Position numbers: made by a program. DNA of 60,475 nucleotides, counting the filler, from Sphingomonadaceae bacterium (GTDB taxonomy: Bacteria; Chloroflexota; UBA6077): the NCBI GenBank assembly GCA_050261575.1. It is 3 parts of 3 records of this genome, joined end to end, with 100 filler letters (N's around TTAATTAATTAA, not from the genome) between each part and the next. Parts side by side here need not be neighbours in the genome. Positions count along the whole stretch, not along the records: positions 1 to 31,327 come from JBLNDL010000073.1; 2 more parts are not named here. One strand, given 5' to 3'. Of the stretch, positions 21,001-24,000 are shown piece after piece (position 1 is the first letter of the stretch; the number at the start of each line of letters is the position of its first letter).

Positions 21001-24000
21001 CGGCGAAGATGGCGGTCGGCCGCTGCCCGACTGCCTGGGACAGCAGGGAGAGGATGGCTTGGTAGCCGCTCTCGAACCCGAAGTCCCCCTCTCGGATCAG
21101 CGTCTCCCAGGGGCCGGCGCCCACCAACTCCAGCATCGCCTGCCGGTATCCCTTCATTCGGTCTCGGGCGCTCGTCAGCGCCGTCGGGCCTCCCAAGTAG
21201 GCGATCCGCCGGTGGCCCAGGGCGATCAGGTGGGAGGTGGCCTCGTAGGCGGCGCGGGTGTTGTCGATCTGGACGGAGGGGAGAGGCCACCGATGTCTAC
21301 CGATCAGGACGACCCGGTCGCCGATCTCATCGGGGGTGAGATGCTCCCCGTCGGTTTCGATGCCCCCGCCGGCAAAGATGATGCCGTCGGCCTGCTTCTC
21401 TCGCAGCACCTCCAGGTAGCTGCGGAGTTTCGCCAGGTTGCGGTCGGTGTTGCAGAAGATGACGGTGTAGCCGTGCTCGCTGGCGACATCCTCGACACCT
21501 CGGGACAGGAGCGGGTAGTAGGGGTTGGAGATGTCGGGGATGATCAGGCCGATGGTGGAGGTGGACTTTCCCAGGAGGCCGCGAGCCAGGGGGCTTGGCC
21601 TGAAATCCAGCGCCTCGATCGCCTCGATGACCCTCCGGCGGGTTTCGGGTCGCATGGGGTAGCCGGTGTCGTTGAGGACCCGGGAGACGGTGGTGATCGA
21701 GACGCCGGCCCTTGCGGCGACGTCCTGGATGGTCGCGGCCCTTCTCTCCACTCAGAAAGCCCTTTCAGAAAAGGTTTTCTACGGCCGGGATTGTAAGCCC
21801 ACGCGCGCGGCGTTGTCAAGGGGTTTTCCGAGAGGAATCCGCGGCATCTCCCTCCGAGGCCGTCTACCCCCATCTCGGATGGGGTCTCCCGGGCGCTCCT
21901 GGTCTCAGGCCGCCTTCAGCCTCGCCTCGGGCTGGCTCCCCTCCAGGGGGTAGCCCCTCGCCTGCCAGCCATGGATGCCACCCGTCAGTGCCCTCACGTT
22001 GTCGTAGCCCCGCCGCATCAACAGCAGCGCCGCACGGGCGCTGGTCTCCTCGTGGGGTCAAGCTCAATAGAGGATGATCGTGCGGTCGTGGGGAAGCTCT
22101 TCGGCACGCAGGGGGATCTGCATCAGTGGCATGCAGACGGCCCTCGGCACGTGGCTGCGGTTGAATGCCTCGGGGTTCCGCACGTCGACGAAGAGAGCCG
22201 TGCCCCGATCGAACTCGGCCTTCGCCTCCTCCAGATCGATCTTGGGCGCCTTGCCCAGGTCCAGTGGCTGCGGCTTCATCATTTCTCGCTCCTGACCTCT
22301 CTGAATCGGCCGGCCCCCAGCGCCCGCCGGCTCGAACAGATCGAGAGCGCAAAGGGCGTGCCTATCGTGGGGAGGTCGAGGGGGTGCTGCTCAGCAGCTC
22401 CGCCAGCCGAGCCGCGACATCCTGGCTCGTGGATCCTTCGGGCACGGGCAGCGCCTCGACGAGGTCCCTCGCGATCTCGACCACGGTGGCTCGGGTGGCC
22501 GCCTCTACCGGCAGCGTCACGTCCACCGACTCGCTCTCCACTATCACTTGCCGGTGATGGGCGTCCACGTGGTGGACCTGCAGGGTTACCACCTGCGCGT
22601 CCCTCTGAAACTCGGTCACGTCGGGCTCGGGGATGTGGAGGGTTTCTCGGAACCCCGCCTCCTTCAGCACCTGCGAGAGCTTCTCCACGAAGATCCCAGC
22701 TAGGTAGGTCTTCAGAGAAGCATCAAGTCTCTTTGCCATGCTCGCTATCCACCTCACTTTCGGCTTGGGCCTCGGACCAGGCTCCGCGCGTGCCTGGTCC
22801 ACCCTTCTTGAACATCGGCACCAGGAGGATCGGCGCCAGCACCGTGGTGATGAAGGTCATCATGACGGAGACCCCGAAAACGTCTGCCTGGATGACTCCT
22901 CGGCTGAGCCCGACTCCGGCGACGATCAGCGCAACTTCCCCTCGTGGCATCATCCCTACGCCGATCCTGCCTGCGCCGGTCAGGTTGAACCCCAGCCCCA
23001 GGGATGGGAGCCCACAGCCCAAGACCTTCCCGAGGATGGCCAGGATGCTGATCACCAATCCGAACAGCAGAACAGACCCCATCGCGCTGAAGTCCACCAG
23101 CATTCCCATCACCACGAAGAAGATGGGGACGAAGGCGTGGAAGATCGACTCCATCGGCTCACGCAGGGTGTCCGCGATGTCGGTCTTGGAGAGTGCGAGC
23201 CCGATGGTGTAGGCACCGATGATCATTGCGAGGCCGAACATCTCGGCTAGTGCTGCCGCCAGGAAGGCGATGGCCAGTGCTAGGGTTACCGGTGCCCCCG
23301 AGGAGCGGAACGAGGACAGGAAGTTCGAGATCCGCTGGGACAGCAGGATGCCGATTGCCATCAACCCCAGCCAGAAGCCCATGGCCTTTCCGGCCACCAG
23401 CGCCAGATTCCACAGGGAGACGTCCCCGCTTGCACCCAGGCTCACCACTATTGCCAGGACTATGATGCCCAGCACATCATCGATCACTGCCCCGGCCAGG
23501 ATGGTGACCCCTTCGGGTGTGTCCAGCTTCCCGATGTCTCCCAGCACCCTGGCTGTGATGCCCACGGAGGTGGCAGTCATTATGGCGCCCATGAATAGGG
23601 CGATCGGGTCCATCGGGTCCCTGGCCTGGCCGAAGGCCACGGTTGCCAGGTTCCCCAGGGCGAATGGCAGGATGACACCCCCCATCGCCACCACGAAGGC
23701 GGGCCCTCCGTATCGGAAAAACAGGTCGAAGTCGGTTTCGAGTCCGGCGTAGAAGAGCAGGATCACCGCGCCTATTTGGGCGACGGACCACAGCTCCGGC
23801 GACACGGGGACTACCGAGCCCGGTTCGGTACGGCCGAACAAAGTGCCGATCAGCGGCAGGCTCACTCCCCCCAGGGCGTAGGGTCCGATTGCCACGCCGG
23901 CCAGCAGCTCACCCAGCACGCTGGGTTGCTTCAGCCACCGCTCGAAGATCTCTCCTCCCAGCTTGGCGGCGATCAGGATCACCGACAACTGGAGCACCAG

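Follow-up and report, generated by a model that had tools for sequence, protein, structure and literature searches.

A predicted single-domain rhodanese with two selenocysteine codons one residue apart in a Chloroflexota genome

On sequence grounds, a gene on the minus strand of the Sphingomonadaceae bacterium assembly GCA_050261575.1 (GTDB Chloroflexota) is a real small rhodanese gene with two predicted selenocysteine (Sec) codons one residue apart. The window, that is the whole stretch of DNA that we analysed, comprises 60,475 nucleotides with filler included. We consider it likely that the product is a cytoplasmic single-domain rhodanese selenoprotein of a divergent Chloroflexota branch of NF041203 (rhodanese_LYCAU), in which a U73-A-U75 pair is decoded with the help of one hairpin and plays a redox or carrier role. 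The UxU rhodanese form is widespread and has been in print since 2007, and the window gene is a fresh example of it, not a new kind.

Read from 22282 to 21905, the minus-strand frame runs MMKPQ...TIILY-TGA-GCT-TGA-PHEETSARAALL...KAA-TGA, and the active-site loop of the product is I-L-Y-U-A-U-P (Table 1). Under translation table 11, only a 72-aa ORF (22064-22282) is called at the locus; the survey's finding had described such a gene call ending at the first of two in-frame TGAs, and our translation confirmed both this and the proposed read-through product. The protein matched PF00581 (Rhodanese) with 72.5 bits at a Pfam gathering cut-off of 22.2. Its best NCBIfam match was NF041203, with 86.1-86.2 bits against a cut-off of 115, as the survey had also reported.

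Table 1. Features at the rhodanese locus, in coordinates of the window.
Feature	Position	Strand	Remark
Rhodanese selenoprotein CDS, 125 aa	21905..22282	(-)	ATG 22280-22282, stop TGA 21905-21907; translated with TGA=U
UGA1, codon 73, predicted Sec	22064..22066	(-)	Canonical rhodanese catalytic Cys position
UGA2, codon 75, predicted Sec	22058..22060	(-)	Sec of the known C-x-U form
AGGAG, ribosome-binding-site-like	22289..22293	(-)	6 nt before ATG; read from sequence
SECIS-like hairpin CAGCGCC / CGUGC / GGCGCUG	22025..22043	(-)	Conserved 5-bp core GCGCC/GGCGC
146-aa ORF, no Pfam match	22362..22802	(-)	Upstream of the rhodanese gene, same strand; context only
Na+/H+ exchanger family gene	22723..24306	(-)	Pfam Na_H_Exchanger 204 bits; two genes upstream; context only

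A collection of 5.8 billion proteins returned three matches for the window branch, all of them fragments of 70-72 aa, and the fact that gene callers and public proteins alike offer fragments only would fit a gene that is decaying through two nonsense mutations, or TGAs that are assembly errors. Against this, the part 3′ of the TGAs is 44-66% identical to relatives and as conserved as the upstream part, with changes that are biased to third codon positions, and the same two TGAs are common to at least 93 genes when the class relatives and the genome scan described below are taken together. In addition, positions 21995-22145, which include both TGAs and the hairpin, recur with zero differences in a 151-base contig of another study. 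Judged from these comparisons, coding constraint persists downstream of both TGAs, and both TGAs are under selection. We rejected a pseudogene and an assembly error on the strength of the third-position-biased divergence and the identical independent contig, and we leave the decay that the survey had entertained, like assembly error, almost no probability.

The Sec-decoding machinery of the genome is complete. Contig C14 carries selA (595 bits) and selB (331 bits), selD (354 bits) lies on C65 and itself contains one TGA, and a tRNA-Sec at C12:15331-15428 is the only tRNA of the genome with anticodon UCA. A reassignment of UGA was ruled out, since TGA ends 1017 of the 2528 long ORFs of the genome as well as the rhodanese gene itself, and the tRNA-Sec is the sole UCA tRNA.

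The AlphaFold2 model of the product (mean pLDDT 92.4) has an alpha/beta rhodanese fold, and its best Foldseek matches are the rhodanese structures 6mxv, 3tp9 and 3nhv (TM 0.75-0.79). With a strand at residues 68-72 and a helix from residue 76, the model would place U73-A-U75 in the link from the central beta-strand to the N-terminal end of the active-site helix. U73 aligned with the catalytic Cys of the solved rhodaneses 3tp9 and 6mxv in a loop that is two residues longer, and Sec stands in place of Cys at the nucleophile position, which follows the central strand at the start of the loop. In addition to this canonical Cys, the first U aligned with the Cys that C-x-U proteins have. A conserved Glu occupies the loop where classical rhodaneses have basic residues. 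The polysulfide-sulfur transferase Sud (1qxn), GlpE (1gmx), PspE and YgaP share the fold and the aligned catalytic position, but they lack Sec, have a single Cys and carry a basic loop of six residues.

The window protein resembles the known NF041203 type in its single rhodanese domain, the Sec two residues past the canonical Cys position, the P-x-E-x-x-S-A-R-A stretch and the place of the hairpin; it differs in its score, which lies below the cut-off, and in having Sec rather than Cys at the first position. That cut-off was reached by none of 401 sampled Chloroflexota genomes. We took the L-Y-C-A-U criterion from the name of the NF041203 model and from the term 'CxU' of a 2026 review (PMC13188914), which in its available text enters this type as 'rhodanese-like form 3, CxU, 1 Sec'. 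In the window protein, the Sec at +2 is present and the Cys position is Sec. Among the matches listed, proteins that pass the NF041203 cut-off also carry L-Y-U-A-U, so the motif is not strict.

The UxU form itself is described in the available text of Zhang & Gladyshev (2007; PMC1976440): for a rhodanese-related sulfurtransferase they state that 'a second Sec evolved ... resulting in a UxU motif'. As far as that text goes, this form of the deltaproteobacterial symbionts of Olavius algarvensis resembles the window protein in being rhodanese-type with a second Sec that yields UxU, and the two probably belong to the same family; in support, the matches listed include Thermodesulfobacteriota genes with L-Y-U-A-U that score above the NF041203 cut-off. 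The window gene differs in representing a divergent Chloroflexota branch and in being cytoplasmic. Two close Secs are known elsewhere from the rows seen of the review table, namely from Prx-like UxxU, NF041115 metal-binding UxxU, FmdB-family UxxU and TsoB rhodanese/DsbD fusion UxxxxU proteins, which have other folds or architectures than the window rhodanese. Because the UGAs of these bacterial two-Sec genes lie a few codons apart, one downstream element presumably serves both, and the 6-nt spacing in the window gene is the shortest in comparison with the UxxU and UxxxxU motifs of those rows. Membership in TsoB (NF045694) found no support, with 28.2 bits against 805 and a single 125-aa domain that has no fusion.

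A U-x-U loop was found in 13 of the 26 family genes of class relatives. In these 26, the first position is TGA (13) or TGC/TGT (13) and nothing else, the second is TGA in 25 and TGC in one C-x-C member (G045), and the tree requires at least three switches between U-x-U and C-x-U. A collection-wide scan of genome contigs that demanded U-x-U yielded at least 80 verified UxU genes from at least 78 assemblies, which between them carry at least seven phylum labels. The matches listed comprise Chloroflexota (44), Thermodesulfobacteriota (14), Nitrospirota (6), the label 'Myxococcota' (5), Planctomycetota (5), Binatota (1), Pseudomonadota (1) and unlabelled assemblies (4); among them, the UxU genes from Thermodesulfobacteriota, Nitrospirota and unlabelled delta lineages scored 120-172 bits with NF041203 and so exceed its cut-off, sulfate-reducer lineages included. 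Because the loop recurs in half of the class genes and in all these scan genes, it is beyond chance. Given this spread over phyla, and with the form also in print, we find no support for the survey's view that UxU is special to the class while relatives elsewhere have C-x-U.

The survey had placed a second copy with a U-T-U loop at C26:35021-35305 and regarded it as cut by the contig end. Its loop and coordinates stood, with the sequence ILY*T*PHEASSARA, but the truncation did not: because the last 104 bases of C26 are the first 104 of C20, the copy continues onto C20 and is not truly cut. The two copies are 47% identical and are the sole Pfam rhodanese matches of the genome. Because gene callers cut at the first TGA, both rhodanese-domain genes of this genome are mis-called.

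The hairpin that the survey had placed about 23 nt after the first UGA was recovered: counted from the U of that codon, the stem begins at 23 nt, which is 20 nt after UGA1 and 14 nt after UGA2. Its apical loop C-G-U-G-C is small, contains G (GU) and sits atop a stem that is supported by covariation. Across the 26 class sequences, 130 of 130 cells of the 5-bp core are paired, two of the pairs show compensatory changes, and the offset is identical in all 26 genes across the C-x-U, U-x-U and C-x-C types. Among the matches listed, the hairpin is present at that offset in 80 of 80 UxU genes, with five of five pairs in 78; core pair 2, which involves synonymous third positions, is C-G in 46, U-A in 30, U-G in 4 and mismatched in none of these 80. 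The folding energy of the 86-nt region was no better than that of shuffles (z = -0.16), and because minimum free energy is uninformative in a GC-rich frame, we relied on covariation. An Rfam scan of 21850-22350 with E up to 10 returned four chance-level matches and no SECIS family. Overall, the survey's reading of a two-Sec, single-domain rhodanese of the NF041203 kind, in two copies and with one hairpin, is supported.

A review (available text of PMC8659212) gives 11 nt as the distance of the E. coli upper stem-loop from the UGA, and in the other three Sec genes of this genome (selD and two of FdhA type) the stem begins 11-12 nt after the UGA, with the loop at nt 20-22. Compared with selD and the fdhA genes, the rhodanese UGA2 has 3 nt more and UGA1 9 nt more, and the loop begins only at nt 30 from UGA1. 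Because of this difference in spacing, efficient decoding of UGA1 by the hairpin is not assured. Only UGA2 might then be a true Sec codon, with UGA1 decoded poorly or otherwise, by termination at 72 aa or by near-cognate Cys or Trp, and with a main product that is not a two-Sec protein; the UGA1 distance well outside that of the other three genes would fit this, as would a hairpin place that one-Sec C-x-U genes share and that looks tuned to UGA2. However, UGA1 is kept in half of the class genes and in the scan genes of several phyla, alternates with Cys codons alone and is present in both paralogues despite their low identity. Moreover, no other tRNA of the genome reads UGA, and habitual termination three codons ahead of an essential residue would leave a useless gene. 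We therefore regard decoding of UGA2 alone as quite improbable.

Because the neighbours of the gene are not conserved, we drew the functional reading from motif, fold and fusions only. Pfam searches of 58 ORFs that flank the class loci revealed no shared neighbours beyond close kin, and neither did all-against-all clustering of 517 ORFs around the scan loci. Pyridine nucleotide-disulfide oxidoreductase genes adjoin the rhodanese gene in two genomes (G039 and G048), a setting that would suit a redox or sulfur role. The largest cluster of flanking ORFs overlaps the rhodanese gene on its opposite strand, as a shadow frame would. A look for RNA evidence turned up no RNA data set for the stretch, and parts of the stretch had no cover in sequencing runs other than those of the source.

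In four genomes (G009, G014, G023 and G032), Na+/H+ exchangers carry a C-x-U rhodanese domain at their C-terminus. Among the matches listed, 13 loci encode multihaem cytochromes joined to UxU domains that have signal peptides, and at one locus a UxU domain is fused to a cyclase domain. MccSep, a multihaem polysulfide-reductase selenoprotein, was considered as a candidate partner in the cytochrome fusions; the available text of PMC13510729 names rhodanese only in the title of a reference. By analogy, the signal-peptide and lipoprotein members, like the cytochrome fusions, may be modelled on the periplasmic carrier role of Sud-type rhodaneses. Such varied fusion partners (multihaem cytochromes, ion exchangers and a cyclase) suggest that the domain is a redox or sulfur-sensing module that can be reused. 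The ion exchanger and cyclase fusions, as well as the acidic residues in the loop, could also point to a soft-metal or metalloid site (Hg, As, Cu or Se) rather than a redox pair, with the domain acting as an ion carrier, chaperone or sensor. No metal-resistance genes adjoin either copy in this genome, however, and the multihaem cytochrome fusions point to electron or sulfur chemistry, which makes a metal site rather unlikely in our estimation.

In the redox or carrier reading that we favour, the ribosome would meet two UGAs 6 nt apart, and a single SECIS element at a fixed 14-16 nt past UGA2 would bring SelB and Sec-tRNA for both. With either UGA in the A site, the hairpin would lie outside the ribosome, and it could thus be used twice in succession. 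U73 would act as the nucleophile, taking a sulfane sulfur, a selenium atom or an oxidised substrate, and U75 would be its resolving partner through an Se-Se bond, or an Se-S bond in the C-x-U relatives. The domain would then work as a carrier or sensor of sulfur or selenium with redox activity, and not as a classical thiosulfate:cyanide sulfurtransferase. Simple redox cycling has against it that diselenides are very hard to reduce.

We put the chance at about even that the whole combination holds, namely that one hairpin directs two Sec insertions 6 nt apart with UGA1 at 20 nt, almost twice the distance in the other Sec genes of this organism, and that an all-selenium UxU site is the sole rhodanese chemistry of this bacterium. 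If so, SelB-SECIS geometry would be far more elastic than the 11-nt rule of E. coli, or two elongation cycles would be enough for the element to be loaded again. Without selenium and a diselenide-type pair, the bacterium would then have no rhodanese-type handling of sulfur or selenium. About a hundred genes of the family combine two UGAs 6 nt apart with one fixed, covariation-supported hairpin, and sister genes with one UGA exist alongside; the family is thereby a natural experiment on the reach and double action of the bacterial SECIS. Candidates for a natural diselenide or Se-S-Se carrier site are rare, and UxU in the active site of a rhodanese is one of them.

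The rhodanese gene lies on contig C73, which covers places 1-31327 of the window; places 31328-60475 are N or lie off this contig. Under translation table 11 its ORF is limited to the first 72 codons, and with TGA read through it encodes a protein of 125 aa that comprises the whole rhodanese domain (Pfam PF00581, 72.5 bits), with the selenocysteine (Sec, U) loop I-L-Y-U-A-U-P and no signal peptide. We rechecked on the sequence the coordinates that the survey's finding gave for the gene, its two in-frame TGAs and its hairpin, and all of them are correct (see the table). The top NCBIfam match of the protein is NF041203 (rhodanese_LYCAU, known motif C-x-U), where it scores 86.1 bits, short of the 115 needed to pass the cut-off. 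This is a real gene, and very probably a two-Sec rhodanese decoded with one SECIS.

Features of the rhodanese locus, Sec genes of the same genome (G000) and cytochrome fusions in relatives (positions without a contig refer to the window)
Feature	Position	Strand	Remark
Rhodanese CDS	21905-22282	-	start ATG 22280-22282, end TGA 21905-21907; frame translation
UGA1, codon 73	22064-22066	-	in-frame TGA
UGA2, codon 75	22058-22060	-	in-frame TGA; GCT between UGA1 and UGA2
AGGAG	6 nt upstream of ATG	-	read from sequence
Hairpin CAGCGCC/CGUGC/GGCGCUG	22025-22043	-	read from sequence
146-aa ORF	22362-22802	-	coding-like composition; between exchanger and rhodanese genes
Na+/H+ exchanger gene	22723-24306	-	two genes upstream of the rhodanese
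Second rhodanese copy	C26:35021-35305	-	reads ...EIILY*T*PHEASSARA...
selD	C65:2949-3887		S-C-A-G-U-A-G-K; one in-frame TGA
Formate-dehydrogenase-alpha-like Sec genes, two	C18:15415-17412; C6:44180-44941
Cytochrome fusion, to locus end	L069, L072, L083, L094, L095, L118, L145
Cytochrome fusion, short	L152, L161, L168, L170, L175, L181

In-frame TGAs might also reflect a decaying gene, an assembly error or a changed genetic code. We compared the window gene with 10 relatives, to which its protein identity is 44-66% 3′ of UGA2 and 27-53% 5′ of UGA1. Nucleotide differences 3′ of the TGAs are most frequent at third codon positions in 9 of these 10 comparisons, the sole one without this excess being that with the diverged second copy of the same genome. 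Decay is excluded by this conserved part and its third-position-biased differences, and an assembly error at the TGAs is excluded because a contig of another study matches 21995-22145 without a difference. Reassignment of UGA is likewise rejected: TGA terminates 1017 of the 2528 long coding-like ORFs of the genome, and its sole tRNA with a UCA anticodon is tRNA-Sec, so that UGA is an ordinary stop and the code is not reassigned.

The genome is able to make selenoproteins. Its assembly (103 contigs, 3.72 Mb, 65% G+C, 100% complete) holds adjoining selA and selB genes on contig C14, a single tRNA-Sec on C12 and further Sec genes (see the table). The second rhodanese copy, 47% identical to the window copy, had been described as cut by a contig end, but it is not truncated: because the terminal 104 bases of C26 are identical to the initial 104 of C20, the two contigs join, and the gene spans this junction with its N-terminus running on into C20. 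Genes on its C26 side encode a citrate synthase and a large BTAD-domain regulator. Apart from these two U-x-U genes, nothing in the entire assembly matches the Pfam rhodanese model (E ≤ 0.001), which finds no Cys-type rhodanese there.

A protein search of 61 genomes together with fetched loci (L numbers) gave a non-exhaustive set of 26 loop-bearing family genes of the class, 13 of them U-x-U, 12 C-x-U and 1 C-x-C; two C-x-U rows belong to the unpublished genome G048, and without these (13, 10 and 1) every statement still stands. The first loop position is TGA or TGC/TGT only, the second is TGA in 25 of the 26 genes and TGC in one, and a U-x-C gene does not occur among them. U-x-U and C-x-U genes are interleaved in a maximum-likelihood tree, on which U-x-U needs five changes, at least three of them forced by well-supported branches. 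This alternation of TGA and Cys is the usual pattern of a redox-active Cys/Sec position, with the second Sec fixed in the class family and the first optional.

All 26 class genes carry a 5-bp stem GCGCC/GGCGC with the loop C-G-K-G-Y; the stem begins 16 nt past the second UGA, and its place is equal in C-x-U, U-x-U and C-x-C genes. Each of the five core pairs is a standard pair throughout (130 of 130 cells), and two of them show double changes (G-C to A-U in G007; C-G to U-A in G001 and G003). All 500 shuffles, which ignore relatedness, score lower in covariation, as does every slid control except the -3 slide, which is practically equal (0.105 vs 0.106). Stronger evidence comes from a collection-wide scan for the pattern U-[TA]-U-P-x-E-x-x-S-[AV]-[RG]-[AV], which constrained the loop and a section of the 5′ arm; because it left the 3′ arm free, pairing by that arm is not built in. 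Among the matches listed, the 80 U-x-U genes have the stem at an unchanged offset, with five of five pairs in 78. The third positions of the AGY Ser and GCR Ala codons pair as C-G in 46 of them, U-A in 30, U-G in 4 and C-A in 0, and both the C-G and U-A states are found within Chloroflexota, Nitrospirota and the delta lineages. Covariation of this kind between synonymous sites shows that selection acts on RNA structure and not on protein.

The 7-bp stem of the window gene begins 14 nt past UGA2 and 20 nt past UGA1; for UGA2 and UGA1 its loop begins at nt 24 and nt 30, counted from the U. selD and the two FdhA-type genes of the same genome have the stem 11-12 nt past the UGA and a GU-containing loop at nt 20-22, in agreement with the upper stem-loop of Escherichia coli, which the review PMC8659212 places 11 nt from the UGA. 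UGA2 thus exceeds the local norm by about 3 nt and UGA1 by about 9 nt. No second hairpin for UGA1 exists in the window gene, and we infer from conservation that one hairpin would serve both UGAs.

The scan, with one genome per species, returned at least 120 loci. By tblastn, the 120 listed comprise 80 rhodaneses with a U-x-U loop and 40 chance matches. Among these matches listed, the 80 genes are spread over 78 assemblies (two copies in each of two) and are labelled Chloroflexota (44), Thermodesulfobacteriota (14), Nitrospirota (6), Planctomycetota (5), 'Myxococcota' (5, in records titled Deltaproteobacteria), Binatota (1) and Pseudomonadota (1), with four unlabelled. We scored 27 family genes (the window gene, 8 class relatives and 18 scan genes) against NF041203. 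Its cut-off was passed by 8, at 120-172 bits, all of them U-x-U and from Thermodesulfobacteriota, Nitrospirota or delta-labelled records; the other 19, including all 13 Chloroflexota and both tested Planctomycetota genes, reached 68-111 bits. Of 401 evenly sampled Chloroflexota genomes, 45 gave hits at E ≤ 1e-16, 53 rows in all, none of which reached the cut-off, with one TGA in 46 rows (three from the unpublished genomes G048 and G191), two in 4 and none in 3. Because this threshold disfavours two-TGA rows, missing the known U-x-U genes of G001, G003, G044 and G047, 4 of 53 is a lower bound.

The 146-aa ORF upstream of the rhodanese has no Pfam match and, as listed, shares 80 nt with the end of the exchanger gene. 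A C-x-U domain forms the C-terminus of a Na+/H+ exchanger in four relatives (L037 of G009, L063 of G014, L057 of G023 and L058 of G032), and many one-TGA rows of the 401-genome survey lie in open frames of 530-830 aa, whose length suggests that they may be further exchanger fusions. Among the matches listed, 13 delta-lineage scan loci, from Thermodesulfobacteriota and delta-labelled MAGs, encode in one frame a signal peptide and a U-x-U domain fused to a multihaem cytochrome rich in CxxCH motifs (see the table; PF13447, Cytochrome_C554, checked in three), which may be a periplasmic sulfur-carrier-plus-reductase enzyme. In a Binatia MAG (L129:432-1481, minus strand) the U-x-U domain is fused to an adenylate/guanylate cyclase domain (PF00211, 38 bits), which suggests a sensor use. 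Pyridine nucleotide-disulfide oxidoreductase genes adjoin the rhodanese in G039 and the unpublished G048; otherwise the flanks of the class and scan loci share no neighbours except among close kin and vary from genome to genome. The U-x-U/C-x-U domain gives the impression of a portable redox or sulfur module.

Hydrophobic stretches followed by A-C or G-C were seen by eye at the N-termini of L050 (G050), L044 (G052), L049 (G056) and L034 (G058); these look like lipoprotein N-termini, and the proteins would be exported U-x-U or C-x-U rhodaneses. An Ala-Ala C-terminus (KAA, RAA, LAA, EAA, HAA or AAA) occurs in 10 of the 26 class members, including the window gene (21908-21913), and in only 3 of the 80 scan genes among the matches listed; in the class members it resembles the end of the tmRNA tag of the window's genome, ANEPVALAA. 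Relatives also hold rhodaneses with Sec five residues after Cys, in the loops Y-C-x-G-x-T-U-G-x-S-Y and Y-C-x-D-x-x-U-D-x-S, or at the catalytic position, in Y-U-N-M-R-H-R-G-S-S (L028 of G046 C92, L054 of G001 C110 and L047/L048 of G046 C111; L055 of G047 C76, L061 of G057 C123 and L062 of G014 C325; L052 of G017 C86). These types probably belong to the remaining listed rhodanese selenoprotein forms.

An AlphaFold2 model of the window protein (24-row alignment, pLDDT 92.4) has the rhodanese fold, and its top Foldseek matches are rhodanese structures. Strand 68-72 (T-I-I-L-Y) leads into U73-A-U75 and a helix from P76. Profile alignment to solved rhodaneses places the catalytic Cys at U73 and extends the loop by two residues relative to the classical one; Glu at position 78 is nearly invariant and the loop has no basic residues. 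These features make a classical thiosulfate-binding cradle unlikely. A nucleophile and a resolving residue would instead be paired at the helix N-terminus, forming Se-Se in the window protein and Se-S in C-x-U relatives. Alternatively, U-x-U could serve to bind soft ligands (sulfur, selenium or metals).

The U-x-U form has been in print since 2007, in the passage of Zhang & Gladyshev (PMC1976440) on a UxU motif in rhodanese-related sulfurtransferase, the only paper in which a full-text search listing for UxU and selenocysteine pointed to a rhodanese. Reviews of 2022 and 2026 (PMC9312934, PMC13188914) give the family as CxU with one Sec, and name further bacterial two-Sec motifs, UxxU (three families) and UxxxxU (TsoB); the U-x-U form is therefore known yet largely forgotten. 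A pair of UGAs at close range within a single bacterial gene is an accepted prediction, for which the literature searched yielded no experiment. The window gene adds a new example, from a divergent branch of the Chloroflexota, to a kind that is known and widespread; it is of value for correcting annotation and as a natural test case for the reach of the bacterial SECIS.
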